NCBI GenBank assembly: GCA_946553025.1
Contig: CAMNRM010000022.1
Coordinates: forward strand, 2,726 to 66,725
Source: an uncultured Clostridium sp.
Lineage (GTDB): Bacteria > Bacillota > Clostridia > Lachnospirales > Lachnospiraceae
Length of the DNA: 64,000 bases
Direction of reading: 5' to 3'
Positions within the stretch are counted from its first letter, which is position 1, and each line of letters opens with the position of its first letter. Below, piece after piece: positions 1 to 13,488 of this stretch. The notes below the pieces were generated by a model that saw nothing but the letters and a program-made list of their open reading frames with translations, did not search any database and was not told where the DNA came from. Made by a program: the position numbers and the translations under genes.

Positions 1-1
1 G

Positions 2-817
2 TTCTTTAAAGAAATCCTCATTTTTATGCTTTGTGGCAGTTTCATCCATCTCATTTTTCATTTCAAACATTATGGAAATAAATTCTATATCGTCCACAAA
101 ATCTCTGAAAATAAAATCCCCCTTACTTCCAGTTCGTATATCATTGTCCTTTTCAAAATAGGCAGTAGGAAATGCTGCCATTCGCAATGCATTAAACTGA
201 TTTGAACAGTGCTGTTCCAGACTTTCTCCTATCATTTTCGTAGATTGTCGTGCTTTAAAATCTTTGTATTGTGCAATTAATTCATCTTTTGATTTTAATT
301 CATTTTTATATTTCTCTTCCAATGACTTTTCTTTTAGTTTATTCTCATTTTCTTTATTTGATAATTGCTGTGTTAGTATTGTAATTTCATTGTTCTTTTC
401 AAAAATTTCTTGTTGTTTGTCTTGCACTGCTTTTGTAACTGCCAATTCTTTTTTTGTTTCCGCATCTTTGAGTTCACCTTTTAATTTTTCAATTTCTTTA
501 TCTTTTTCATTCGTTATATTACTTATTGCAAGTTTCTTATCATTTTCACTTTCATTAATTTTTGACTCTAACTCTTTAATTCTTGTATCCTTATTTGATA
601 ATTTTAAGTCTTTATCTGAAAGACGTTTATCATAATCTTGCTGTTGCTGTAATTGAATAATTTTCACGTCACTTGCTTTCTTCTCTTCTAATTCAGCTTC
701 CCGGCGTTTAATTTCTTTATCAAACTCTTTATCTCGAATTTGCTGAACAATTTGGGCATAACCTGATTCATCAACTACAAAAACCTCCCCACATTTTGGA
801 CATTTAATCTCCTGCAT
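2..817 (-). CDS. DUF2130-family coiled-coil protein (N-terminal CxxC knuckle), truncated by the window edge
   Basis: Absent from the ORF track because it runs off the edge. Manual translation from ATG 817 gives MQEIKCPKCGEVFVVDESGYAQIVQQIRDK...STKMIGESLEQHC...FEKDND...KGDFIFRD...IMFEMKNE. SD AAGGAG overlaps the stop of the pglX C-terminal ORF. Confidence 0.8.
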   Translation of the reverse strand, partial: MQEIKCPKCGEVFVVDESGYAQIVQQIRDKEFDKEIKRREAELEEKKASDVKIIQLQQQQDYDKRLSDKDLKLSNKDTRIKELESKINESENDKKLAISNITNEKDKEIEKLKGELKDAETKKELAVTKAVQDKQQEIFEKNNEITILTQQLSNKENENKLKEKSLEEKYKNELKSKDELIAQYKDFKARQSTKMIGESLEQHCSNQFNALRMAAFPTAYFEKDNDIRTGSKGDFIFRDFVDDIEFISIMFEMKNEMDETATKHKNEDFFKE

Positions 818-830
818 AATTGTAATCTCC

Positions 831-1772
831 TTATTTTATTTTTGCTAATACATTTTGAAAAATAGCGTAATTATGTTTTACTCCGTCATCTAAATCAATC
901 TTAATCATCTGATCTGCCAGATGATGAATTTTTTCCTCATAGTCATATAATTCTTTTGCCTGGTCTTGTAACTTTTTCAGTTGTTTATTCAGTTTAACAC
1001 GTTCGCTTGTTTTCGCTCCGATAATCTGTTCTTCTATCGCTCCAATAGCAGTACGGTAACGGCTCTGCAATTCATGAACATAATCTGTGCGGATACGGGC
1101 AATAGTATCTGGCTGATAACGATGTATGTAAATCAAACATTTAAAGCCACCATTTTTACCAGAATCAAACAGCCAATAAATGGGACGTTTTTGGTAAGTT
1201 TTACAGTGATTAGTGTAAAACTCATTAAGAAAATAATTTCGTATAACTTCACGGGAATTTCCTTTACCAACAAGCGCATCTGCAATAAATTTCAAGTTCT
1301 CTTCCAGCGTATCTGTTCCATAAACCGTTTCTACCCATTTTATAAATCTACTGGTAATATCATTTTCAAAATAATCATCATCACAGATGGGGAGAATGGC
1401 ATCTGGTTCTGGCTGGAAGGTTATGTACTTAGATGTATCCCATTCACCCCCAGCATAAACTAATCCCTCTACATCAAGAGAATAGCGTCCGAACATACAG
1501 CCTACGGCATAGGAAATTAATGAAACAATTTCATCCCGCATGGTACGAATATAATTACTGCCTTTCATCGATTCTGGAATATCTTCTTTTGTGTCATAAA
1601 TTCTATGGACAGTAACATCCTTGTCGGCAACTTCTGGTGTTAATTCATCTTGTAAACCATAAATATCAATAAAAATTCGGTTTAGTTCTTCCTCGTTGGC
1701 TTTAAGTTGGTCAAAGCGAGCATTACACTCTGCTTTCCATACGGTGTATTTATCAAAAATCAATTGTGACAC
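831..1772 (-). CDS. pglX: BREX-1 methyltransferase PglX, C-terminal part (separately translated)
   Basis: WKAECNARFDQLKANEEELNRIFIDIYGLQDELTPEV, YQKRPIYWLFDSGK and IDLDDGVKHNY are hallmark PglX C-terminal motifs. GTG start with AAAGGAGG 7 nt upstream. Confidence 0.9.
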   Translation of the reverse strand: MSQLIFDKYTVWKAECNARFDQLKANEEELNRIFIDIYGLQDELTPEVADKDVTVHRIYDTKEDIPESMKGSNYIRTMRDEIVSLISYAVGCMFGRYSLDVEGLVYAGGEWDTSKYITFQPEPDAILPICDDDYFENDITSRFIKWVETVYGTDTLEENLKFIADALVGKGNSREVIRNYFLNEFYTNHCKTYQKRPIYWLFDSGKNGGFKCLIYIHRYQPDTIARIRTDYVHELQSRYRTAIGAIEEQIIGAKTSERVKLNKQLKKLQDQAKELYDYEEKIHHLADQMIKIDLDDGVKHNYAIFQNVLAKIK

Positions 1773-2323
1773 AAATTATCCTCCTTTTTCTTTTCAATTA
1801 AATTTTTCCATTTTTTTAAATTTGTTTGATAACAAATAATTCGTGCAGATATATTTCCTGTTGTATTACGGTCTTCAAATAAAATTGAAATATAATTTCC
1901 ACCATGAACAACAAATACTCTACCATGAGCAAGTGCATTTCTTAAATGACGTAATAAACATTCTAAATCAGTTTCCCTATATCCATTTTTAATGCTTCGT
2001 TTACATATAAAACGATTACAACAACTACACAAGTTATTATCATCCAACAAATATTTAAAGTTTAAATACTTATCAATTTTTTTATTTTGTGCAATAAAGG
2101 AATAATTTTCCATGTCCCATGAATCAAGCATTTCTTCGAGTAATTCATTATGTTGTTCCTGTGGTAAATAACTACATATATAAGAAGATATATTAGGTGC
2201 TTCATATTGAAAAAAACCAAATAATTTTCGCAAATTACTTATCTCACATGTAGTTGGATTTATTGCGTTACATGGTGAAATATCAAAATACTTCACAGAT
2301 TTTTTACACGTTTTACATTTCAT
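1760..2323 (-). CDS. Putative HEPN-domain RNase (Rx4H motif)
   Basis: ECLLRHLRNALAHG contains the R-N-x-x-A-H HEPN signature. Own SD (GAGGT) overlaps the pglX-N stop. AT-rich. Confidence 0.6.
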   Translation of the reverse strand: MKCKTCKKSVKYFDISPCNAINPTTCEISNLRKLFGFFQYEAPNISSYICSYLPQEQHNELLEEMLDSWDMENYSFIAQNKKIDKYLNFKYLLDDNNLCSCCNRFICKRSIKNGYRETDLECLLRHLRNALAHGRVFVVHGGNYISILFEDRNTTGNISARIICYQTNLKKWKNLIEKKKEDNLCHN

Positions 2324-2332
2324 AATTTACCT

Positions 2333-4777
2333 CTATACTAAAGAATGATGTTTAAAACCCCAAGAAGTTTCCAAAGAGTCCCAATCCTCTTTTGAATAAT
2401 TAATACATACGCCAACTACTTTTTCAATGTTCATCCAATCTTTACTCACAATTAATGGAAGTTCCATTATATCATGAACTTGAAAATTTAAAGTTGGATT
2501 TTTTATATTTAACAAATACTTTACAATACTACTATTTAAAAAGCCTAATACATACTCACATTTATCTTCAATAAAACCAATTGGTCCAGCATCACCAAAC
2601 AAACTACCTTCAATAACTTCTCTAAAAGCAATTTCACTACTTGTAATTCGCCCCCATGTAATGCCCTTTTTAAAATAATATTTTTTATCACGAAGGCGAT
2701 AATTCTTCACATTTTGTTGGATATGTATTCCATCATGATATAAATCAACTATTTTTTGATTATTTCCATACCATTTTCTATATCCACCACCACTATTTAA
2801 TGGAAACCATTGATAATCACCCATATCACTATAATTTTTACAATTAAACTTAATATTATCAATAATTGGTTCAAACCATAATCGGATATAATCATCACTA
2901 CCTGTCATAATGCCTGATTTACAATTAACATATGTTGAAAAATGTTTGTTGCTATATAAACAAAACGTATTTTCACTCACCCAATACGCCACTGGCGTTC
3001 CAGGGATTTTTGAAAAATTCTCTGAACTTGTTTCATAATAATATCCACAATTATGATTTGAAATCGCTTCTAATGTTTTTTGCCGTTGTACCTCCATTCC
3101 ACCACGAAAATCAGTTAATCGAAAAAAGCATCCTTTTTTATTAATATGACAATTTTTAAATACAAATGTGCATACCGGAACAGTTGCTTCTTCAAAAGCT
3201 GAATATTCAAATTGAATAAGTGTTTCTATCGTTTTTTGGTTGCAAATAATACGCCGTAATTTTTCATAAGACTGAATAAACATCCACACATAAGGAGTGA
3301 AAAATCCAAGGTAGCCTGTTGACTTTGTTATTTGCATACAGCGAACCATAAATACAGAGAAGAAATCAGATTTATAATCGGCAAAATTAGATTTTATAAA
3401 TTCACTAAGTCTACCATTCATATTCCCCGCCCCCATATACGGCGGATTCGTACAAACCACATCATATTTCTGCGCCAGCACCTTCCTAAACTGCCAGCAG
3501 TTCATCTTCTCCTCAAAGTTTTCATCAAATAACGTATACTCTTCCGGCTCTTTTGGCATATCTTCCAACTCATCCACCGTCAGCAATGCCCCAAACTCTT
3601 TCCCTTCCTCATATCCTTTCGGGCTATACACATTCGGCTGTATCCCCCGCTTAAAAAACCGGCTGTCATACTGCCTTCCCTTCATCATCACCGAAAAATA
3701 AGCCAACTGCGCTGCCCTATCATCAATATCCAACCCATAAAGATTATTCTCCACAATACTCCGCACAGCATCCCTCGTCTGTACACCGTGCGCCTCATAT
3801 ATCTGTACCAGCACATCAAACATATAACACAAAATATGCCCGCTTCCCATACAGGGATCGATGCACCGAATATCCTCTGGATTCAGCCCGGCATATTCCT
3901 TACGGATTTCCTCTAACTGCCGCTGCACCTCCGGTTCCTGTTCTGCTTCTTCCAGATAATACTTCCACTGCGCCTTCAGTTCATCATTCGGATGCCCCTC
4001 CACCCACAGCCGCCCCAGAGAATTTTCCACCATATATCTTACAATCCAATCCGGCGTAAATAACTGTGTAGCGGCGGGAATATTTTCTTTCGTTATCTTC
4101 ACATTCTTTTTCAATGCGGCAAATACTTCATCTTTCTTTTCACTGTTATAATACTGATACAGCCACCCGATAATCTGTACCTGGTCTTTCCAGTCCTCTT
4201 CCGGGATAAGGGCAATCATCTGTTCAATCACGCTTCCCTCACGGAGCAGGTTATCAGGAAACAGTAATTCCGTATAGTCTTCAATCCTCTGAAACATCCC
4301 CGGCAAAATACTATTTAATGCATTACACTGGACAATAATCAAATACTTAAACAATTCCTCATCTTGATTCCTATTTTTCAGTTCATAAACCTTTTCCATA
4401 TCCAGCCCGTCAAACTCCATATGGATAGCCTCGGTTAAAATCTGCGGTTTAAATGCATTGCTTTCATCCGTAAATACCCGCACATGGGTAGGCAGATATC
4501 CATTAACTTCCATAAACCGCAGAGCCGAAAAACGATTAAACCAGGTATAGGCAACTTCCTCCATCACTTCCTGATAACCCTTCTGCCTAATCTGCTCAAT
4601 CAATGCCCTCCTCTGCCTTTTTTCCGATACCGTCAAAACCTTGCCGCGCACACTGTCCGCCGCCAAATCTTCAATGCTATTTTCGCCAATATCATAAAAT
4701 GACGCCTTCTGCGAAACACGGGAAATCAATTCTCTTCTTGCCCAGACTGCAAATTTTTTAATCGCGTTTTTATTCAT
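2333..4777 (-). CDS. pglX: BREX-1 adenine methyltransferase PglX, N-terminal/MTase/TRD part
   Basis: MNKNAIKKFAVWARRELI start, ATQLFTPDWIVRYMVENSLGRLW, motif I DPCMGSGH, motif IV NPPY; ends at DWDSLETSWGFKHHSLV. Confidence 0.93.
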   Translation of the reverse strand: MNKNAIKKFAVWARRELISRVSQKASFYDIGENSIEDLAADSVRGKVLTVSEKRQRRALIEQIRQKGYQEVMEEVAYTWFNRFSALRFMEVNGYLPTHVRVFTDESNAFKPQILTEAIHMEFDGLDMEKVYELKNRNQDEELFKYLIIVQCNALNSILPGMFQRIEDYTELLFPDNLLREGSVIEQMIALIPEEDWKDQVQIIGWLYQYYNSEKKDEVFAALKKNVKITKENIPAATQLFTPDWIVRYMVENSLGRLWVEGHPNDELKAQWKYYLEEAEQEPEVQRQLEEIRKEYAGLNPEDIRCIDPCMGSGHILCYMFDVLVQIYEAHGVQTRDAVRSIVENNLYGLDIDDRAAQLAYFSVMMKGRQYDSRFFKRGIQPNVYSPKGYEEGKEFGALLTVDELEDMPKEPEEYTLFDENFEEKMNCWQFRKVLAQKYDVVCTNPPYMGAGNMNGRLSEFIKSNFADYKSDFFSVFMVRCMQITKSTGYLGFFTPYVWMFIQSYEKLRRIICNQKTIETLIQFEYSAFEEATVPVCTFVFKNCHINKKGCFFRLTDFRGGMEVQRQKTLEAISNHNCGYYYETSSENFSKIPGTPVAYWVSENTFCLYSNKHFSTYVNCKSGIMTGSDDYIRLWFEPIIDNIKFNCKNYSDMGDYQWFPLNSGGGYRKWYGNNQKIVDLYHDGIHIQQNVKNYRLRDKKYYFKKGITWGRITSSEIAFREVIEGSLFGDAGPIGFIEDKCEYVLGFLNSSIVKYLLNIKNPTLNFQVHDIMELPLIVSKDWMNIEKVVGVCINYSKEDWDSLETSWGFKHHSLV

Positions 4778-4912
4778 TCGTACACCGCCTTCTCTTACTT
4801 ATCTTCGTTTCACTCATCTTCACTGCAATTATCTTCGTTCCATTTACTTTCGTTTCATACATCTCCATTTTGCACATCTTCGCTGCAATTATCTTCATCC
4901 CATCTATCTCTG

Positions 4913-7900
4913 CTATTTCAACTGAATACCATCACAGTTTTTCAATAACTGCTTTAACTGTTCACGGATTTTCTCCACATATACATCGATATCTTCCTCA
5001 CTCTCCAAACACTTTGCCGGAAAAACAATCTGCCGGTTATACGACTTTATTCTCTTCTTAGAAACTGCCGCTTTCTCTGCCCTATCCGCCTTTTCCGCTT
5101 TCACCGCCATATTTCCCTGCCGCTTTCCCACAGCAGATACGTCGCTTTCAGCTAATCCATCTAATCCAGCCAGTCCGTCTACCCCATCCGATGCCGCAGA
5201 ATCCGCAGAACCCGCCGAACCGCCCGCTCCCATCGAACGCTCCATCCCCGCCGACTTCTTATCTGTCAGCGCTTCTATTTTTTCACATGCTTTATCTTTA
5301 TACTGCAGCATCTGCGGCACAAGACCATCCAGCAAAGCAAGGTTTTTACATTCCCCGATATCCTTCTCTTTCTGCGCATAATAAGTATCTGCCTTATCCA
5401 ATGTCATCTTTACCTCGTGATTCCCGTCCCCCGCCTGAATTATCGCAGCCCTGCACTGAACCAGCACATCCTTAACCTCTTCCCGCTTTTCCACCAGCAA
5501 ACGATTATGCCCTTCATGCACGGTTTTTATCAATTCATTTAATTCCGGAATCCTCCTGTAATTAAATCCTCCCTGCACCTTCGTAATCAGCCGAATCTGG
5601 TTTAAGGCAGCATTTGCCTCCTCTTCATGAGAAATGTAATCCAGTTCATTGCGCAGCTCCTCTTCCAGTTCTGCCGCCTCGTCAAACAACTGCACCTGGC
5701 TGCGGAAGAATCCTTCTACATCCTGCAAATCTTCCTTGCTGTCAAAAAGATGATCTTCCTCCTTCAATACCGCATCAATCAGGGCAATATTATCTTTCTG
5801 CTGGGACAAAATATTCTCCATCAACTGACAGGCATCAGAAACCTTATCCTGGTCTGGATATCTTCTATCCGTGCGATATCTCTCCCCCAACTCTTCATAA
5901 TGCCTTTTCTGCCCGGAAAAATATTCCACAATAAAGGCAACCAGGCCGTCCTCGTCCTCCGGCACATCCATCCGGTCAAAGTATTCCCGAAGCAAATCTT
6001 TTACCTTCTTCATCTTCACCGCCGTAACTACCTGTCGTTTGGAAATGCTGGTTTTTCCAATCTCACTCTTTTTCCGCAGCATATCCGGCAGTTTGGGGTT
6101 ATCCGGCTGAATCGTTGCCCCGCCGTATTTCACTGTAACCTTCTGCTGGACAATCAGCAGCGCGACAACTGCGGCAATATCAATCTCCCGCCATCCATAA
6201 GGAATCGCCTGGTAACGGCTCTGAACATCCGCCATCGACGTGGGCAGGTTCTTTCGCTCCTGAACAATCAAGTACTCCTCCACCTTCGCCGCGGCATCGC
6301 GATTAGGTTCTGTTCCCGGAAGCATCCCTTCATCGCCGGACAAAACGGCAAGGATATCCGCGTCTGTTTCCGCATTTTTCGTTATCAGGTTAAGTTCACT
6401 GTAGACATGGGAAACCAGATATTCCATAGCCTGATCAATCCTGGCCTTAACATCGCCGCTCCTGATTTCCAAATGCTCCCCATCCACGTAATACTCGGCA
6501 TCCTCAATCGCTTTTTTCAAATCATTCATTGCCGACTGCTCATACCGCACCGCCTCTTCCTGCCGGCTGCGGATGATATCCTGCACGGTTTTGGGAAGCT
6601 GTGAAACATTGCGCTGTTTTACGTATTTGCGGATCTTCATAGCGCTTTCCAGGGCTTCATAATAAGGCGCATCCGAAAGAACGACAATCGCCTGCCCTTT
6701 CGATTCCGTCATTAAACGAAGTTCTGCTTTTTCCGCCCCATCAGTAGCCACCGTTAAAAACCGCAGGCGCATTCCCCCGGTAACGGCACCGATCATCACG
6801 CCGTCCACCATCTGATCAAAAGCAAAATCATATTTCCCGTAGCGAAATTTCTTCACCGTATAAATATCCGCAAAAATCATATGCCCGATGTGCTCGACAA
6901 TATTGGCGGTATCCACGGGCGTATTTTTAATTTCCCGCTGAATATCCTGTTCCTCGTCGGTCAGGAAGTTATAGGTATCCCCGGTTCTTCCGATATAGTT
7001 CTGGCTCATCAGCCGCTCAAGGGATTCCTTTACCTTTTCGCGCAGGACAATCTTATCGGAACGAATATCTTCCGCCATCAGAATAACCATATTGTCCACA
7101 TTTGCCGGAATATCATCCACATAGCGGATAAGGTATAAAAGCTTCAGCAGATCAACATCCTGATCCAATATACCCAGACCGCTGTCCGCCGCCTTCTGGC
7201 ATCGGTCAATCACCCGACGGATGGAACTGTCCAGGAAGCTATGTACGGTATCATAAAAGCGGAAAAACGGCACCAGGGCATATTCATCCTTCTCCTGAAT
7301 CTTCTGCACCGCCTCCTGGAAGCCGGACAGCATGGAACGCTCGCCCCCGGACAGATGCTTGCCGGAATTTCCGTGCTTGCGGATTTCGGCAAATACCTTC
7401 TGCATAATGATGAACTGGTAAGGCACAAATGGATAATTTACGGCAAATTCCATCGCGCCTCCATAACCCTTGATATCTAATATCGAATTGGTAAAGCTGA
7501 AAAGATTTCGCAGAACCGAGTCATTTTTCTCATATAAATCTTCAAGTTTTTTGCTTACTTCCGGCTTTTTCTTTAAAATGCGCTTCTGAATCACCTCATC
7601 CACCGAGGACGAGGAAAGGCTGAGTCTTGTCTTAAACCGTGCCTGAATACGGGAAAATTCATCCGCACGAACCTTAATAATCTCGTCAATCGCCTCCTGC
7701 CCCGTACACATCACCCAGACTTTTCCGCCGCACGCGCTGCCGATTTTTTCGGTAAGCGACTGTAGATTTAAAAGCATATCGGTATCCGTGCCGACATACT
7801 GACCCACCTCGTCAATCATAAACAACAAACGAAAGTTTTCCGGCTTTGTATCCACATAAGCCTTAATATCCGAAACCAACTGTGCAATGGAAAATTCCAC

Positions 7901-8599
7901 CGCCGTTTTATCCTGAAACCAGCGCTTTGCATCCTCCTCGCTCATATCCAGAACTTCCGCTAAAGCCGGGATAATAAATTTCCCGTTAAAAGCATATGCC
8001 TTTCGCTGTTCCAGCCATGGCTTGCCTTTTTTCTGTTCAAAACTCCGGCGAAACTCTTCGGTTTTTCCCTGCTGTTCGATATATTGTTCCATCATAGAAA
8101 CCTTTAAATCCTCACCGTAAAACCCAAGATGGTTATAAAACATTTTGGCAAAAACGCGCAGCACCGCCGTTTTATTTTTCTCAATAGGACCTTCAATATC
8201 AATATTAAATAAGATCGTTTCCGTCTGGTTTCGCGTCGATTGATCCACGCTCATAAAGGCAGCCGGATCGTCCTCAAACTTGCGCCGGAACATCTCCACC
8301 ACGGACATCTCTCCGATAGTTCTGTTTTCCAGAAGATAAGACAGCATTTTTAAAAAATGTGATTTACCGCTTCCAAAAAACCCGGAAATCCAGACACCGA
8401 TATCTGCCGTCGGCGTATGAAAGGCTTCGCTGTAATCATCAAAAAAACGGATAAAATGTTTTTTCAGTTCGCGGGTAATCACGTATTCCTGCACTTCCTG
8501 CAAAATCACATCCTCCGCATTCTGATCAACCTTAATTACACCGTTAATCTGCCGGTTAATATTTTCTGCAAACATATCACGAATCATCATCGCGCTCAT
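4913..8599 (-). CDS. brxC: BREX system P-loop ATPase BrxC
   Basis: 1228 aa; GVWISGFFGSGKSHFLK Walker A, DEVGQY Walker B, YPFVPYQF; position between brxB and pglX. Confidence 0.93.
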   Translation of the reverse strand: MSAMMIRDMFAENINRQINGVIKVDQNAEDVILQEVQEYVITRELKKHFIRFFDDYSEAFHTPTADIGVWISGFFGSGKSHFLKMLSYLLENRTIGEMSVVEMFRRKFEDDPAAFMSVDQSTRNQTETILFNIDIEGPIEKNKTAVLRVFAKMFYNHLGFYGEDLKVSMMEQYIEQQGKTEEFRRSFEQKKGKPWLEQRKAYAFNGKFIIPALAEVLDMSEEDAKRWFQDKTAVEFSIAQLVSDIKAYVDTKPENFRLLFMIDEVGQYVGTDTDMLLNLQSLTEKIGSACGGKVWVMCTGQEAIDEIIKVRADEFSRIQARFKTRLSLSSSSVDEVIQKRILKKKPEVSKKLEDLYEKNDSVLRNLFSFTNSILDIKGYGGAMEFAVNYPFVPYQFIIMQKVFAEIRKHGNSGKHLSGGERSMLSGFQEAVQKIQEKDEYALVPFFRFYDTVHSFLDSSIRRVIDRCQKAADSGLGILDQDVDLLKLLYLIRYVDDIPANVDNMVILMAEDIRSDKIVLREKVKESLERLMSQNYIGRTGDTYNFLTDEEQDIQREIKNTPVDTANIVEHIGHMIFADIYTVKKFRYGKYDFAFDQMVDGVMIGAVTGGMRLRFLTVATDGAEKAELRLMTESKGQAIVVLSDAPYYEALESAMKIRKYVKQRNVSQLPKTVQDIIRSRQEEAVRYEQSAMNDLKKAIEDAEYYVDGEHLEIRSGDVKARIDQAMEYLVSHVYSELNLITKNAETDADILAVLSGDEGMLPGTEPNRDAAAKVEEYLIVQERKNLPTSMADVQSRYQAIPYGWREIDIAAVVALLIVQQKVTVKYGGATIQPDNPKLPDMLRKKSEIGKTSISKRQVVTAVKMKKVKDLLREYFDRMDVPEDEDGLVAFIVEYFSGQKRHYEELGERYRTDRRYPDQDKVSDACQLMENILSQQKDNIALIDAVLKEEDHLFDSKEDLQDVEGFFRSQVQLFDEAAELEEELRNELDYISHEEEANAALNQIRLITKVQGGFNYRRIPELNELIKTVHEGHNRLLVEKREEVKDVLVQCRAAIIQAGDGNHEVKMTLDKADTYYAQKEKDIGECKNLALLDGLVPQMLQYKDKACEKIEALTDKKSAGMERSMGAGGSAGSADSAASDGVDGLAGLDGLAESDVSAVGKRQGNMAVKAEKADRAEKAAVSKKRIKSYNRQIVFPAKCLESEEDIDVYVEKIREQLKQLLKNCDGIQLK

Positions 8600-8604
8600 C
8601 CTCC

Positions 8605-9168
8605 TTATAGTACATTAAATGCCCGGTAGTAATCGTTCGGCTGCAGCCGGTCAAATAACTTTAAATGATACCCGTCAAATTCACCAGGGTACATCACTAA
8701 AATCGGTATATCCGAAAAATGCGGCTGCAATGCCTCCAAAAGGGTGTGCACCCGCATAAATGGGAATACATCGCCCACCCCGGTAATCAGTAAGACATCC
8801 CCTGACCGGTGCGGCGCATATTGGATTTTTTTAATGTATTCCTCTTCCCCAACCGCAGAATGAAGCTGTTCCAGCAGAAAAATTCCGCCGTCCTCTTCCT
8901 CCATTTCCGGTATAGCTTCCAGAATATCCAGATCCCTGCAGACATCCAAAAAGATTTTGTAAAGATTACACTCTATCAGATGACAGTTCATCAGCGGATC
9001 GGATATCATCTGTTCAAGAAAATGCTGCACCATCATTTCTTCTTCCGCGTTATAGCAAAAAATACGGATATTTACTTCATTGCTCAATCCCTTACCTTCA
9101 AGAAAATCCTCTTCCTGAATCAACTTCCGCAGATGATCCAAACGCTCTTTCGTATTTCCATTTCCCAT
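8605..9168 (-). CDS. brxB: BREX protein BrxB (DUF1788)
   Basis: FLEGKGLSNEVNIRIFCY, ITGVGDVFPFMRVHTLL, YPGEFDG...DYYRAF; gene order. Confidence 0.9.
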   Translation of the reverse strand: MGNGNTKERLDHLRKLIQEEDFLEGKGLSNEVNIRIFCYNAEEEMMVQHFLEQMISDPLMNCHLIECNLYKIFLDVCRDLDILEAIPEMEEEDGGIFLLEQLHSAVGEEEYIKKIQYAPHRSGDVLLITGVGDVFPFMRVHTLLEALQPHFSDIPILVMYPGEFDGYHLKLFDRLQPNDYYRAFNVL

Positions 9169-9327
9169 CAGCCATTACCTCCTGCCTGTTTCAAAAGGAA
9201 CTTGAAATGCCCGATAAATCCAGGCAGCCCCTCCATTCCTCCACTTTATTCCTTTCCCTATTCAAAGGAAATTCGGAATGCCCGATAAAGCGGGGCAGAC
9301 CCTCCGCTCCGCTACTTCCTTGATAGA

Positions 9328-9999
9328 TTAAATCGATAAAAAACAATTAAACGCAGGCAAAGCTGCATCATCATGATTTTTGCGGATAGCTTCCTCCAGA
9401 ACAGGGTTCAGCCATACAAGATTCAAATGGTCAGCTTTGCCGTTATCCATATATTCATTTTCAACCAGAATTTTCACCATCACCTGTTTTAATTTTGTTA
9501 TGGTCGATTCACTCCATCCGGCAATGGTGTCTTCCTGTTCCTGAAGACGAAGAAAAAAGATATTTACATCCGATTTCCCAAAAGAAAATTCATTAAGCCG
9601 GTATTTCTCTCCAATCTCAGTAACCATAAATTCCCAGATGATGCGGTATTCCTTCATCATGGCATACAGGCAGATCTGCTTTGCATCATAAAAAGGCCGC
9701 TCAGCCAGCGCACACACTAAAGATTCATCCCCCATGGCCCGCAGACGGCGAATACAGGCCCTGGCCATCCTCTGCAAAGACTTTTCCGTCGGATATTGAA
9801 ACAGATTTTCCTCTGCAATATGTTTGATTATCTCTTCATCCGACAGCTTTTCGCCCATCAGCCTGGCGGTAATACGCATTTCATAGAATAAGAATGGTTC
9901 CCTTGTGAACGCAGAAGAATAAGGTTTGAAGTTTTTTACATTTTTTGCAGTCTTATTCACCAGCTTCTTATTCACCATCCTACCCTTTACCTTTCCCAT
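9328..9999 (-). CDS. brxA: BREX protein BrxA (DUF1819); true start possibly 9978
   Basis: YSSAFTREPFLFYE, NLFQYPTEKS, WSESTITKLKQ; gene order. Confidence 0.88.
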   Translation of the reverse strand: MGKVKGRMVNKKLVNKTAKNVKNFKPYSSAFTREPFLFYEMRITARLMGEKLSDEEIIKHIAEENLFQYPTEKSLQRMARACIRRLRAMGDESLVCALAERPFYDAKQICLYAMMKEYRIIWEFMVTEIGEKYRLNEFSFGKSDVNIFFLRLQEQEDTIAGWSESTITKLKQVMVKILVENEYMDNGKADHLNLVWLNPVLEEAIRKNHDDAALPAFNCFLSI

Positions 10000-10216
10000 A
10001 ACAAAAATGTATACTTTTCTGTAATTTAAAATAGTTCAGAAAATTTTGCTTATTTTTGGATATATTTTGATTTTTTTCAGAACACACCGAGCAAATACTT
10101 GATTTTATAGTAGAAATTCCATGATTTTTATGTTATTATTGAATGGATAACGAAAAAGCGTGGAATCACGGAAAAGTATGCTTTCCTGTAATTCCACGCC
10201 TGATATTTTTCCACAC

Positions 10217-10831
10217 TTACATTTTTTGATAAGCCATCTTTTGATAAATCTCCGCCCGATAGCGAAACGTTGAAAGCGGCATCTTACACATCTTTGCCGC
10301 CTCTGTACATGTAATTTGCCCGGATTTCCAAAGCTGATAAGATTGATAAAAGCTATCCGGCAGGGGCATCGGCGGGCGTCCGAAACGGATTCCTTTTGCC
10401 TTTGCCGCAGCAATTCCTTCCGCCTGACGCTGCCGGATTGCTGTCCGTTCATTTTCTGCCACAAAGGATAACACCTGCAAAACGATATCACTTAAGAATG
10501 TTCCCATTAAGTCCTTTCCTCTCCGGGTATCTAAAAGCGGCATATCCAATACCACGATATCAATTCCTTTTTCCTTCGTCAGTATTCTCCACTGTTCCAG
10601 AATTTCCCCGTAATTGCGCCCCAACCGATCGATACTTTTGATGTAAAGCAAATCATCTTTTTTTAAACACCTCACCATTTGCTGATACGACGGACGCTGA
10701 AAGTCCTTTCCTGACTGCTTATCGATAAAAATATTTTTCTCCGGAATAAATAATTCCTGCAAAGAAATTAACTGTCTGCTTTCCTTTTGCTCATAGCTGC
10801 TCACGCGAATATAACCATACTTATTGACCAT
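10217..10831 (-). CDS. Serine recombinase (resolvase/invertase family) with C-terminal HTH
   Basis: YGYIRVSS catalytic Ser motif, SGKDFQRP, SIDRLGRN, ERTAIRQRQAEGIAAAK. Start moved to ATG 10831 (SD GGAAAGGGG). Confidence 0.9.
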   Translation of the reverse strand: MVNKYGYIRVSSYEQKESRQLISLQELFIPEKNIFIDKQSGKDFQRPSYQQMVRCLKKDDLLYIKSIDRLGRNYGEILEQWRILTKEKGIDIVVLDMPLLDTRRGKDLMGTFLSDIVLQVLSFVAENERTAIRQRQAEGIAAAKAKGIRFGRPPMPLPDSFYQSYQLWKSGQITCTEAAKMCKMPLSTFRYRAEIYQKMAYQKM

Positions 10832-11089
10832 AAAAATCCCCTTTCCTGCCCGAAAAGCATCGTATTTTCTGCCATTATACGACATGATTCTACATGACTT
10901 TCCAAACAGAAAACAAGGAGATTTCATCAAATATTTCTTCCATTTTATATAACCGTTTTTTAAATAAGTATGTCATCTTTATCTATCTTTATTTCAGAAT
11001 GCTCCTCAACCTTTAACCAAATTCAACAAAAAGTCCTCCACTTCTAAAAATGATGGGATGAATTGCTAATCCCTTCTCTAACAACAAAA

Positions 11090-11125
11090 ATGACTCCAGC
11101 AAGTTCAATCATCTACTGGAGTCAT
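11090..11125 (-). terminator. Intrinsic terminator downstream of XRE gene
   Basis: ATGACTCCAG...CTGGAGTCAT inverted repeat followed by a T-run on the minus strand. Confidence 0.65.
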
Positions 11126-11134
11126 ACTTCTTTT

Positions 11135-11458
11135 CTACACAACTTCTCTAAGTTCCACATATTCATCCATCAAATCTAATAGCCTATCCAGATTATCAGG
11201 ATTGTTAAACTCTTTCATATACTGCAAATCCGATACTAAATTGTCTGATTCACGATTAATCAATTCACTCTTTGTTGTTTGAAGAAGCCTTGCAATCTTA
11301 TCTAATTCAACTGGAGGAATGATAACTTTTCCTTCGATAACATTCCACACATCTTTAATGGAATATCCCAGATGTCTGGCAAATCTACCAGGACTAATGT
11401 TAGCTTCCAGCATACGCATACAAATATTAATGCCAAGCTTTCTTCCTACATTCGCCAT
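11135..11458 (-). CDS. XRE-family HTH transcriptional regulator
   Basis: ISPGRFARHLGYSIKDVWNVIEGK...LDKIARLLQTT helix-turn-helix pattern; good SD (AAAGGGGG). Confidence 0.7.
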   Translation of the reverse strand: MANVGRKLGINICMRMLEANISPGRFARHLGYSIKDVWNVIEGKVIIPPVELDKIARLLQTTKSELINRESDNLVSDLQYMKEFNNPDNLDRLLDLMDEYVELREVV

Positions 11459-11526
11459 TCTACATCCCCCCTTTATTCAACTCAGCAAACACAAACATCC
11501 CCATATAAAAGCTTCATTCCTGTTTC

Positions 11527-13488
11527 TTAAACCGAATGAAACCTCTCCACCAACACCCCAGATCGGTACGCCTCCAAAAGCTGTTCGAGATCCCCAATCT
11601 TCTCCTTAATATCCTTCCCGATATCGGTATCTCCCACCAGTTTTCTCTGCGAAACCCGCTTGACGACAATGCTTTCGGAATGGATATCGCTCCCTTTTTG
11701 TATCGCCGCCTCCGTGGATTCAAACGGCTCATGCGCCGCTAAAATCAGTCCGTAGGAGTTATAAATCAGCGTATAACCCGCAATCCCGGTTTCCCTCTGG
11801 TAAGCCTTGGAAAAGCCGCCGTCAATAATCAGCACCTTCCCGCCGCACTTGACCGGACTCTCCCCGTTTTTCGTTTTCACCGGCACATGCCCGTTAATAA
11901 TATGGCTCTCCTCTGCCGGAAGCCCGAACTCTTCCAATATCCGATCCGTCACTTCCTCCTTCTCCAATAACCGGTAATACGGATTCTTTCCTTCCTGGTG
12001 CGTTTCCTTATCTGCCAGGAAATATCGCTCAAATGTCGCCATCTTCGCCTTGCCAAACAGCGGTGAGTTTTCATGGAGCCAGATATACCACATCAGGTCT
12101 TTTCCTCGCCGCTTTTCCTCTGCATTGACCGCGACAAAACTCTTTCTTACATAGCTGTCCAGCACCTCGTAAAGTGCCTTCCCCTTATACTTTTTCCCGT
12201 AAATCTCCACCTCTTTCAGCGTTCCGTCGGCATTTAACGGCACACATCCATGATAGAGAAGATTCCCGTTATACACCTTATATAAGCTTCCCTTAGCCAA
12301 TAAAAACTTCATGTGCTGCTGCAGCTTTTCACAGTTTAAAAAGGCCCGTTCCAGGCGGCGGATAATCTCCTCCTCCTGCTCGGTAAACGCATAGGGCGCA
12401 GCCGGATTTACGGTTGGGAAATTCTTATCCAGCAGCTCATATTCCTTCCCGTCCAGCACAATCGTCCCCTTGGCAAAGTCAATGCGGTGCAGAAGATTTC
12501 TCTTTTCCAGCTTAAATTCCGGGTGGCGCATAATCAATTGACCCTCCGCCTTAAACTGGATAATGGAAATCGCCTTGTGCAGCTTAACATTCATCTCCCG
12601 CTCGTCGATACTGCAGTTTCCCCCGCCCTTTAGCTGGAAGCAGGCACAGGGATCATCCCCGTAAACATTCAAGGCAAAAGTAGCCAAAGGCAGCAGATTA
12701 ATCCCATAGCCGTCCTCTAAAATATCCAGGTTTCCGTACCTGGCGCAGATGCGGATAACATTGGCAATACAGCTAATCTGCCCCGCCGCAGCCCCCATCC
12801 AGAGCACGTCATGATTGCCCCACTGGATATCGATAGAGTGGTATTTCATCAGCTTGTCCATAATAATGTGCGGCCCCGGCCCGCGGTCATAGATATCGCC
12901 GACAATGTGCAGATGGTCCACCACCAGACGCTGAATTAACTGGCAGAGCGCCACGATAAACTCCTCCGCCCGCCCCACGCGGATAATGGTTTTAATAATC
13001 GCATTATAGTAGGATTCCTTATCAATTCCTTCCTCTTTTTCAACAATTAACTCCTCAATCACATAGGCAAACTCCGACGGAAGAGCCTTTCTTACCTTGG
13101 AGCGTGTGTACTTGCTGGCTGCACATTTGCAGACCTGAATCAGACGGTAAAGCGTGATTTTATACCAGTCCTCCGGGTCTTTTTTCTCCTTTAATACCTG
13201 GTTCATCTTTTCCTTAGGATAGTAAATTAAGGTCGCCAAAGACTGCTTGTCCTCATTGCTCAGGGTATTGTGAAATACCTCATTTACCTTTCGGCGCACA
13301 GCCCCGGAACCGTTTTTCAAGACATGGGAAAAGGCTTCATATTCCCCGTGAATATCCGTTAAAAAATGCTCCGTCCCCTTGGGCAGATTCAGGATGGCTT
13401 CCAGGTTAATCACCTCCGTGGAGGCAGCGGCGATGGTCGGATAAAGCTCCGACAGACGCTCTAAATAGCGAATCGATAAATCTTTCAT
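11527..13488 (-). CDS. fbp: Fructose-1,6-bisphosphatase class III
   Basis: NLPKGTEHFLTDIHGEYEAF, GDIYDRGPGP, QWGNHD, IDGGFSKAYQ. Start moved to MKDLSIRY (13488). Confidence 0.93.
   Translation of the reverse strand: MKDLSIRYLERLSELYPTIAAASTEVINLEAILNLPKGTEHFLTDIHGEYEAFSHVLKNGSGAVRRKVNEVFHNTLSNEDKQSLATLIYYPKEKMNQVLKEKKDPEDWYKITLYRLIQVCKCAASKYTRSKVRKALPSEFAYVIEELIVEKEEGIDKESYYNAIIKTIIRVGRAEEFIVALCQLIQRLVVDHLHIVGDIYDRGPGPHIIMDKLMKYHSIDIQWGNHDVLWMGAAAGQISCIANVIRICARYGNLDILEDGYGINLLPLATFALNVYGDDPCACFQLKGGGNCSIDEREMNVKLHKAISIIQFKAEGQLIMRHPEFKLEKRNLLHRIDFAKGTIVLDGKEYELLDKNFPTVNPAAPYAFTEQEEEIIRRLERAFLNCEKLQQHMKFLLAKGSLYKVYNGNLLYHGCVPLNADGTLKEVEIYGKKYKGKALYEVLDSYVRKSFVAVNAEEKRRGKDLMWYIWLHENSPLFGKAKMATFERYFLADKETHQEGKNPYYRLLEKEEVTDRILEEFGLPAEESHIINGHVPVKTKNGESPVKCGGKVLIIDGGFSKAYQRETGIAGYTLIYNSYGLILAAHEPFESTEAAIQKGSDIHSESIVVKRVSQRKLVGDTDIGKDIKEKIGDLEQLLEAYRSGVLVERFHSV

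Follow-up and report, generated by a model that had tools for sequence, protein, structure and literature searches.

A type 1 BREX operon with two pglX cistrons

The 64,000-nucleotide (nt) stretch analysed here (hereafter the window; positions 2,726 to 66,725 of contig CAMNRM010000022.1 of an uncultured Clostridium sp., assembly GCA_946553025.1) carries at its left end, on the minus strand, a type 1 BREX (bacteriophage exclusion) operon in which pglX, the gene for the BREX specificity subunit, is present as two cistrons with another gene between them. The genes of the window described below lie on the minus strand. The upstream cistron, pglX-N (2333-4777), encodes 814 amino acids (aa) that comprise an N-terminal helical domain, a gamma-class N6-adenine methyltransferase (Pfam matches Eco57I/N6_Mtase/MmeI_Mtase), a target recognition domain (TRD) and the first of two spacer helices. 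Methyltransferase motif I, DPCMGSGH (PglX-N residues 307-314), is located at 3836-3859, and motif IV, NPPY (residues 444-447), at 3437-3448, on the left edge of a variable low-GC part. PglX-N terminates with ...ETSWGFKHHSLV and a TAG stop; its conserved tail, DWDSLETSWGFKHHSLV plus TAG (2333-2386), serves as upstream homology arm for the cargo slot described below.

The downstream cistron, pglX-C (831-1772), starts 560 nt beyond the PglX-N stop and encodes 313 aa, reading MSQLIFDKYTVWKAEC...NEEELN, that make up the second spacer helix and the conserved PglX C-terminal region. A single open reading frame (ORF) fills the gap: it encodes a 187-aa HEPN protein of the pEK499_p136 family with a Cys-rich N-terminal part (1760-2323), and its Rx4H active-site motif, R128-N-A-L-A-H133, is encoded at 1925-1942. 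The HEPN ATG lies 9 nt past the PglX-N stop, with a GAGG that overlaps this stop, while at its other end the HEPN gene, closing with TGA, runs 13 nt into pglX-C. The pglX-C GTG (1770-1772) is immediately preceded by an in-frame stop and is served by a Shine-Dalgarno sequence, AAAGGAGG (1780-1787, 7-nt spacer), located within the 3' end of the HEPN gene. With this arrangement the HEPN gene is probably translationally coupled between the two halves. The post-NPPY methylase region, the TRD and the cargo gene together form an exchangeable low-GC cassette (1760-3432).

Upstream of pglX-N lie brxC (4913-8599; NF033441, 1197 bits, and Pfam BrxC domains), brxB (8605-9168; Pfam PF08747) and brxA (9328-9999; Pfam PF08849). 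Downstream, 14 nt past PglX-C, begins a gene identified by its translation as DUF2130, of which the 5' part (1-816) is seen and which continues beyond the window edge. Around the pglX cistrons the only junction that is not tightly packed is the 135-nt spacer between brxC and pglX-N. In contigs that encode an identical HEPN protein and a 99.4%-identical PglX-C, pglZ (889 aa, PF08665) and brxL follow downstream, completing the order brxA-brxB-brxC-pglX-pglZ-brxL; from these sister contigs we infer that both genes are also present in the genome of the window, beyond the window edge. The original prediction, made from this DNA without database searches, had described an 814-aa PglX-N with motif I, NPPY and TRD and a restart 560 nt later at a GTG with a perfect Shine-Dalgarno sequence, both halves being free of frameshifts; we recovered exactly these ORFs and no frameshifts. 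Its statement that all junctions are translationally coupled is probably right for the tightly packed pglX-N, HEPN and pglX-C cistrons and slightly overstated, as the spacer leaves brxC and pglX-N uncoupled.

Position of the break in PglX

When compared with the NCBIfam model of BREX-1 PglX (NF033452), PglX-N scores 940.8 bits (E = 1.2e-282), with a match that starts at profile position 1, and PglX-C scores 395.8 bits (E = 4.3e-118) over positions 906-1209 of 1210. PglX-C on its own is under the 500-bit cut-off of the model; jointly, the two products cover the model contiguously. This coverage and the gamma-class motifs (GxG motif I and NPPY motif IV) place the pair in the type 1 PglX family, the members of which are single polypeptides of ~1100-1250 aa, rather than the ORFs of 814 and 313 aa found here. 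PglX of this type methylates a non-palindromic 6-bp motif on one strand and is required for defence. The single-chain PglX/BrxX proteins of E. coli HS (9EWZ/8ZEK) and Salmonella D23580 (8C45/8Q56) have the same domain order and motifs, align with the two products end to end and are accompanied by the same partners, brxA, brxB and brxC, as well as the pglZ and brxL seen in the sister contigs. They differ from the window protein in that the latter is two polypeptides, cut between the spacer helices, with a foreign gene inserted.

Residues 1-808 of PglX-N align to residues 1-880 of the solved Salmonella PglX (8C45), and residues 21-313 of PglX-C to Salmonella PglX 910-1215 and E. coli BrxX 890-1195 (E ~1e-63), so that profile and PDB alignments put the break at ~886-890 in Salmonella PglX and at ~866-872 in E. 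coli BrxX. The cryo-EM structure of the E. coli protein delimits an N-terminal domain (1-210), the methylase (211-650), the TRD (651-837) and a C-terminal domain (CTD, 838-1205) (PMC11842806), and the crystallographic study of Salmonella PglX gives 662-849 for the TRD. Because of these published boundaries, we place the cut after the TRD, between the two long spacer helices, with one helix on each polypeptide. An AlphaFold2 (AF2) model of PglX-C alone (predicted local distance difference test, pLDDT, 66) starts with a 34-residue helix (residues 5-38). Scanning GTDB with peptides of the window PglX-C yielded mostly fused relatives, useful for mapping the linker, which in these proteins is variable both in length (5-40 aa) and in sequence and is flanked by the conserved motifs ...DWDSFETSWDFKRHPL[VI] and xxWxxECxxRFxQLKxNEEELN. 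It had been stated in the original prediction that in single-chain PglX the two segments are joined by a short linker, and supposed that almost nothing has been lost or duplicated; both points agree with the linkers of the closest fused relatives and with the contiguity of the two halves on NF033452, and the alignment to full-length PglX that it proposed gives the break position stated above.

The C-terminal region differs from that of E. coli BrxX at reported metal-binding positions. One of the five residues, D1012, is replaced by Asn in the window PglX-C (residue ~137), and D997 aligns with Glu. The consensus of split PglX-C proteins retains Asp at the D1012 position.

Conservation of the split

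We surveyed DNA for the head of PglX-C with the pattern DK[YF][AT][AV]WKxEC, which matched 75 metagenome contigs and 4 GTDB species genomes. In all of these the C ORF starts no more than ~30 codons from an in-frame stop. All of them show the same break, with a consensus in which PglX-N ends ...SWDFKxHPL[VIL] before its stop and PglX-C starts M-x-x-L-I-S-D-K-Y-A-A-W-K, and in the loci inspected directly the N ORF terminates at the same residue, ...FKxHxL[VIL]. When homologues were instead collected from the N side, with no pattern applied, 24 of the 120 best homologue clusters were N-only (798-872 aa) and the others fused; 23 of the 24 end at the same tail, and this unbiased sample puts splitting at ~20% among close relatives. 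Stand-alone PglX-C is represented by more than 100 protein clusters of 311-314 aa, nearly all of exactly 313, with 76-97% identity, and its named sources include Hungatella, [Eubacterium] siraeum and Phocaeicola plebeius. The exact PglX-C and HEPN proteins of the window are encoded on contigs of many rodent-gut metagenomes, and small identical contigs from runs labelled RNA fall in both halves, which documents presence and is at most weak evidence of expression, the RNA label being a guess.

Between the window PglX-C and other split copies the proportion of synonymous differences (pS) exceeds 0.75, i.e. it is saturated, while that of non-synonymous differences (pN) is 0.08-0.27, and the median dN/dS of PglX-C is 0.098 (644 split-split pairs with measurable dS). 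In ~75 surveyed loci, both split and fused, pglZ is found 3' of pglX-C at a distance of 4-4400 nt, and the operons are therefore complete; brxL is present wherever contigs extend that far. As judged from these comparisons, the split is maintained by selection and is not a product of decay, with no relaxation of selection on pglX-C, in line with what the original prediction had proposed. In a neighbour-joining tree of the C region, split forms occupy at least two clades and also occur as isolated cases, with fused forms between them. Given saturated distances and recombination, the tree cannot separate several origins, re-fusions and transfer of the slot.

The gap as a slot for variable cargo

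Across the surveyed loci, the N stop and the C start are separated by more than 30 distinct distances, ranging from 178 to 4884 nt. The ORFs found there group into 50 clusters of cargo proteins and form at least 30 architectures. An empty slot is hardly ever seen, and the cargo is tightly packed with coupled starts. Cargo annotated with Pfam or PADLOC belongs almost exclusively to toxin and defence families. The commonest, present in 19 loci, is a HipA_C-like protein (PADLOC candidate PDC-M03A); the others are the pEK499_p136 HEPN of the window type and further HEPNs including Hypoth_Ymh, an SpbK-like TIR protein, a Schlafen AlbA_2 plus HATPase_c_4 protein, an AAA_15/21 ATPase like AriA or PD-T4-4 A that comes with a small partner, and DUF4760, DUF559, RES, SIR2_2, DUF2971 and Fic proteins. 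About half of the checked cargo clusters have neither a Pfam nor a PADLOC match. Cargo genes can also be stacked, with three in locus L067 and four in L023.

Insertions at this position are not limited to separate genes. Locus L019 has a single ORF of 1525 aa with a 368-aa in-frame insert at the same loop (8885-9990); the insert is unannotated, has HD-like motifs, and its motifs match a stand-alone cargo protein of L049, a homology judged by eye. Similarly, P0312 encodes a single-chain PglX of 1362 aa in which 248 aa containing DUF559 are inserted in frame at the same loop. The shortest gap, that of L080 (178 nt), contains what is left of a Schlafen-type cargo gene, its final 25 codons; on this sequence it is a deletion scar, in which the split has been kept. 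Comparison of the loci shows the loop between the halves to be, at the level of sequence, a long-lived insertion hotspot. The original prediction had read the split point as a cargo slot and suggested a survey for the same break with different inserted genes, an idea that the range of gap contents bears out, as does the clean cargo replacement between L072 and L104 described below.

Parts of split or fused loci are also seen in other settings. L130 (2856-6567) has a PglX-N-like gene of 631 aa that lacks approximately the first 78 residues and ends with the canonical ...SWDFKKHPLV and a stop. It is followed by two cargo genes, one of them a HEPN, without PglX-C and without BREX genes, and its neighbours are a PhdYeFM/ParE pair and sbcCD. 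By its appearance it is what remains, stranded, of a split locus. In L035 (11745-12248), from a Selenomonadaceae metagenome-assembled genome with a fused PglX, part of the PglX C-terminal region, corresponding to residues 147-313 of the window PglX-C, is present a second time ~800 nt downstream of pglX.

Independent exchange of TRD and cargo

The window PglX-N is 88-100% identical to that of the Hungatella-type locus L043 over residues 51-400 and only 20-46% identical over residues 450-800; identity is 62% in the N tail and 87% in PglX-C. GC content changes at NPPY, from 44-47% upstream to 30% for residues 449-814, and is 26% in the HEPN gene and 36% in PglX-C. The contigs of a further relative, from run X22, cover 41-1846 and 3433-6830 of the window at 95-97% identity and leave 1847-3432 uncovered, such that homology ends at 3433, coinciding with the GC step at NPPY.

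At a threshold of ≥80% identity, the TRDs of 69 loci form 41 clusters. The HipA-like cargo adjoins at least 10 different TRDs, and the HEPN cluster of the window adjoins three. Conversely, cargo has been replaced next to a constant TRD-bearing end: L072 and L104 are ~91% identical from the last 780 nt of pglX-N to 13 nt beyond its stop, and identity resumes 8 nt into pglX-C, with unrelated cargo between (DUF4760 in one and a HEPN-like gene in the other). These pairings, together with the L072/L104 swap, indicate that TRD and cargo are exchanged independently, and the location of the breakpoints within conserved coding arms points to homologous recombination. What by sequence comparison are two exchangeable modules are thus bordered by three conserved stretches: the methylase as far as NPPY, the N tail of 17 aa, and PglX-C.

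We found no recombinase, repeats or att-like sites tied to the slot in the window and the loci inspected. A search of positions 1-12000 for inverted and direct repeats returned only weak inverted repeats (71-83% complementary, 18-34 nt), and a second or silent copy of the TRD was not found in the same interval. We therefore rejected a shufflon or phase variation for the window, given only chance-level repeat pairs and no silent TRD within 1-12000.

The HEPN cargo of the window

The 187-aa cargo protein matches Pfam PF18736 with 30.2 bits (gathering threshold 26.6; E = 4.3e-7; residues 89-183), and the same domain is carried by all 28 of its 28 homologue clusters. In an alignment of 29 family members R128, N129, A132 and H133 are invariant, as are several upstream cysteines. 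The cargo is accordingly a pEK499_p136-family HEPN, a predicted RNase with an intact Rx4H site. The family is diverging fast, its slot relatives in L101 and L107 aligning at a pN of ~0.5. The protein consists of the Cys-rich N-terminal part and the HEPN domain only, and the ABC-ATPase that is fused to HEPN in guards of the PrrC/RloC type is absent.

We rejected the possibility that this family is restricted to the slot: one relative (58% identical) trails a PglX-N-like gene that has no PglX-C in its vicinity, and another (47% identical) sits beside an RCC1-like gene outside BREX. The latter, in L127 (3053-5418), lies directly upstream of a 590-aa RCC1/WD40-like gene with no BREX locus. A similar RCC1-like gene is found a few genes downstream of the HEPN gene in a locus of the window type (L013, 1196-4980), and the HEPN and RCC1-like genes may be one module that is now parted by pglX-C.

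Discussion

We consider it likely that in these bacteria type 1 BREX pglX is kept by selection as two cistrons with a slot for defence cargo between them. PglX-N contributes the N-terminal domain, the S-adenosylmethionine-dependent adenine methylase and the TRD, and ends in one of the two long spacer helices. PglX-C opens with the other helix and continues into the conserved C-terminal part, which forms the lining of the DNA-binding groove; the cut falls in the variable loop between the helices. The spacer helices of PglX have been likened to the antiparallel dimerisation helices of HsdS (PMC11341690), and co-expressed N- and C-truncated EcoDXXI HsdS halves restore wild-type activity (PMC3874165). 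By analogy, PglX-N and PglX-C may reassemble through an antiparallel helix pair into a working PglX; both the physical association of the halves and methylation by the system are presumed here. In related loci the slot holds one to four genes, mostly of toxin or abortive-infection types, or alternatively an in-frame domain or a remnant. Homologous recombination would then swap two modules, the TRD, which sets the DNA motif recognised, and the cargo, which serves as a back-up effector. Cargo would be co-transcribed and translationally coupled with the halves, and the HEPN RNase of the window may act as a second-line effector co-expressed with BREX.

Several observations weigh against this picture or limit it. 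The AF2 model of the closest fused relative, which has a helix at 818-834, a low-confidence coil and a helix at 871-904, is poor (pLDDT 54, predicted template modelling score 0.31), and the evidence that the cut lies in a loop therefore comes from the structure as described in print and from the variable linker. A caution is that Went et al. failed to obtain expression of an isolated C-terminal domain of the Salmonella protein (PMC11341690); their construct, which started from the hinge and contained the TRD, is not equivalent to PglX-C. Relatives of the HEPN protein also occur outside the slot. The survey pattern was built from split copies, and the survey therefore cannot yield the frequency of splitting. 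Finally, the RNA label of the runs mentioned above is a guess, and they possibly contain DNA.

Among other explanations, one that we regard as possible, if clearly less probable, is that the split serves to place the TRD at the 3' end of a gene, where specificity is more easily changed, with the genes in the gap being opportunistic hitch-hikers. This is the explanation given for Brevibacterium casei, where the split avoids non-functional intermediates and where the BREX-1 locus has an inversion-targeted N plus middle coding sequence (CDS) and a separate C-terminal CDS (PMC9881135). The break directly past the variable region fits this explanation, as do the hypervariable TRDs (41 clusters in 69 loci), which often change under constant cargo; however, neither inverted repeats nor silent TRD copies nor a recombinase are found in or beside the gap of the window, and a hitch-hiker would hardly account for a slot that is almost never empty, with contents biased to toxin and defence genes, tight packing and coupled starts. 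Easier change of specificity is in any case compatible with a selected split bearing cargo, and is rather a second benefit of the same architecture. That pglX is simply a pseudogene left by a recent insertion, with BREX inactive or decaying, is what the interrupted gene suggests when a single genome is viewed, and L130, with its PglX-N-like gene and cargo but no PglX-C or BREX neighbours, indicates decay in some lineages. The comparative data effectively refute this reading, which we hold to be very improbable: the break is identical across lineages with saturated synonymous sites, dN/dS is ~0.1, there are no frameshifts, starts and Shine-Dalgarno sites are conserved, and brxA, brxB, brxC, pglZ and brxL are intact. 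Even less credible is the restoration of a single-chain PglX, without any heterodimer, by an intron, translational bypass or protein trans-splicing, which we considered since the halves abut so exactly and for which we found no support. No Rfam intron or RNA family was detected in 1-11000 (two sub-threshold chance matches at E ≤ 1), neither the N tail nor the C head contains an intein-like sequence, the gaps of 178-4884 nt have their own Shine-Dalgarno sequences and starts, and PglX-C has its own strong Shine-Dalgarno sequence and start. Consensus scans for promoters and terminators between the halves gave signals at shuffle level.

A different possibility concerns what the cargo does, namely that its toxins are guarded by PglX, being held inactive by the N/C enzyme and freed once PglX is put out of action by an anti-restriction protein of a phage, for instance a DNA mimic, after the model of PrrC with EcoprrI. 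The cargo does sit between halves whose interface would sense the attack, one cargo set includes an AriA-like ATPase, and PARIS is triggered by Ocr. Such a mode has been proposed for HEPN genes embedded in restriction-modification and Pgl operons (PMC3710099), and Ocr binds the TRD and CTD groove of PglX (PMC11842806). On the other hand, the case is one of analogy: the 187-aa HEPN protein does not have the regulatory ABC-ATPase domain of PrrC, no antitoxin or regulator was identified, and HEPN relatives exist outside BREX too. We find guarding doubtful and treat any regulation of the cargo by PglX as speculation. In a more specific form, which we think rather unlikely, the split gene would be a guard platform on which any slot toxin (HEPN, TIR, SIR2, RES, Fic, HipA-like or other), made in fixed proportion with the halves, is silenced by the assembled N/C enzyme and fires once a phage anti-BREX protein hits the TRD-CTD groove or separates the halves. 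If this were true, the slot would be a plug-and-play socket that ties abortive-infection effectors to the integrity of BREX, and dozens of unannotated slot genes would be new effectors.

A divided PglX has a precedent. In the BREX-1 system of Brevibacterium casei, PglX is encoded by two CDSs, one for the N plus middle part (2589 nt) and one for the C-terminal part, which Milman et al. (2023) interpret as allowing programmed inversions to change the TRD without dead intermediates (PMC9881135). The likeness is close, in that the window too has an N plus middle CDS and a separate C-terminal CDS, the cut in PglX comes where its variable part stops, and the N CDS encodes ~862 aa there and 814 aa here. 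Since the cut lies at the end of the variable region, the logic of TRD change put forward for B. casei also applies to the window. The two differ in how the TRD would change: in B. casei the gene is targeted by inversion, whereas here inversion machinery, with its inverted repeats and silent copies, is absent from 1-12000, the gap holds defence cargo and exchange takes place between strains. A second parallel is provided by the half-subunits of Type I HsdS and the 'Type I 1/2' systems (EcoDXXI/EcoR124I truncations and M.AhdI), in which antiparallel helices join recognition modules and separate chains work (PMC3874165). This comparison concerns the mode of working and not family membership: PglX has one TRD, fused to the methylase, and the second chain here is the BREX-specific C-terminal region, without a TRD.

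HEPN genes of the pEK499_p136 family have been noted in Pgl/BREX operons, and a second line of defence similar to PrrC was proposed for them (Anantharaman et al. 2013, PMC3710099). The window resembles PrrC-EcoprrI and other such embedded HEPN genes in having a HEPN RNase inside a methylation-based defence operon, and differs from them in that the HEPN gene is inside the methylase coding region rather than between genes and has no ABC-ATPase domain. BrxU and PARIS are accessory defence genes embedded between BREX genes; the slot described here, in contrast, divides a core gene at a fixed residue. A 2026 survey reports accessory effectors (HEPN, Schlafen, nucleases) embedded in BREX loci (PMC12839542); the word 'split' does not occur in it, and it describes no interrupted BrxX. 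In the literature searched, coverage of which is incomplete, we did not find a conserved slot inside a gene that takes up hypervariable cargo or in-frame domains. One split PglX, that of B. casei, and the linkage of HEPN with BREX are thus already published, and the hypervariable intragenic slot is apparently new.

The selected split has consequences beyond this operon. PglX tolerates a cut at one loop, apparently working as two chains, which gives experimenters a model from nature for combining different N subunits, with their TRDs, with one constant C subunit and for placing further domains in the loop. The slot can be seen as a defence island inside a gene, bounded by conserved coding sequence that would supply recombination arms and located beside a hypervariable TRD, and BREX recognition and the back-up weapon can therefore be shuffled separately. 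It also offers a guilt-by-position catalogue, in which the cargo clusters without matches are candidates for new anti-phage effectors. Cooperation between BREX and abortive-infection toxins, a long-standing question, is directly testable here in one compact operon.

A second variable slot and neighbouring elements

The interval between pglX-C and pglZ is a second variable slot, with a spacer of 4-4400 nt in fused as well as split systems. In loci of the window type, according to the sister contigs, it contains DUF2130, a 90-aa ORF and a 612-aa RCC1-like gene, followed by pglZ and brxL. The DUF2130 gene encodes a 436-aa PF09903 protein in contigs with identical PglX-C and HEPN, after which come the 90-aa ORF and the beginning of a large one, which is RCC1-like in sister contigs; sister contigs with a 99.4%-identical PglX-C lack DUF2130 (L001 compared with L011-L017).

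The spacer between brxC and pglX-N (4786-4921) contains approximately seven head-to-tail 15-nt units that resemble ATCTTCGTTTCACTC, six of them in register and with 63-100% identity. A 42-aa ORF (4770-4898) encoding a repetitive peptide overlaps the units, and the array may be a regulatory or phase-variable tract. Between brxB and brxA there is a 57-nt direct repeat in two copies (9190-9246 and 9261-9317; 77% identity). Metatranscriptome or metagenome contigs pile up at this repeat (depth 75, compared with ~20) and diverge into unrelated sequence at 9262, 9295 and 9320, as would be expected of a short repeat element that is dispersed.

Just upstream of brxA and on its strand are genes for a 237-aa serine recombinase with a Resolvase N-terminal domain (10217-10930) and a 107-aa helix-turn-helix protein (11135-11458). 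Within 1-12000 no inverted repeats pair this recombinase with the pglX TRD. The two genes may represent the edge of a mobile defence island or a regulator.

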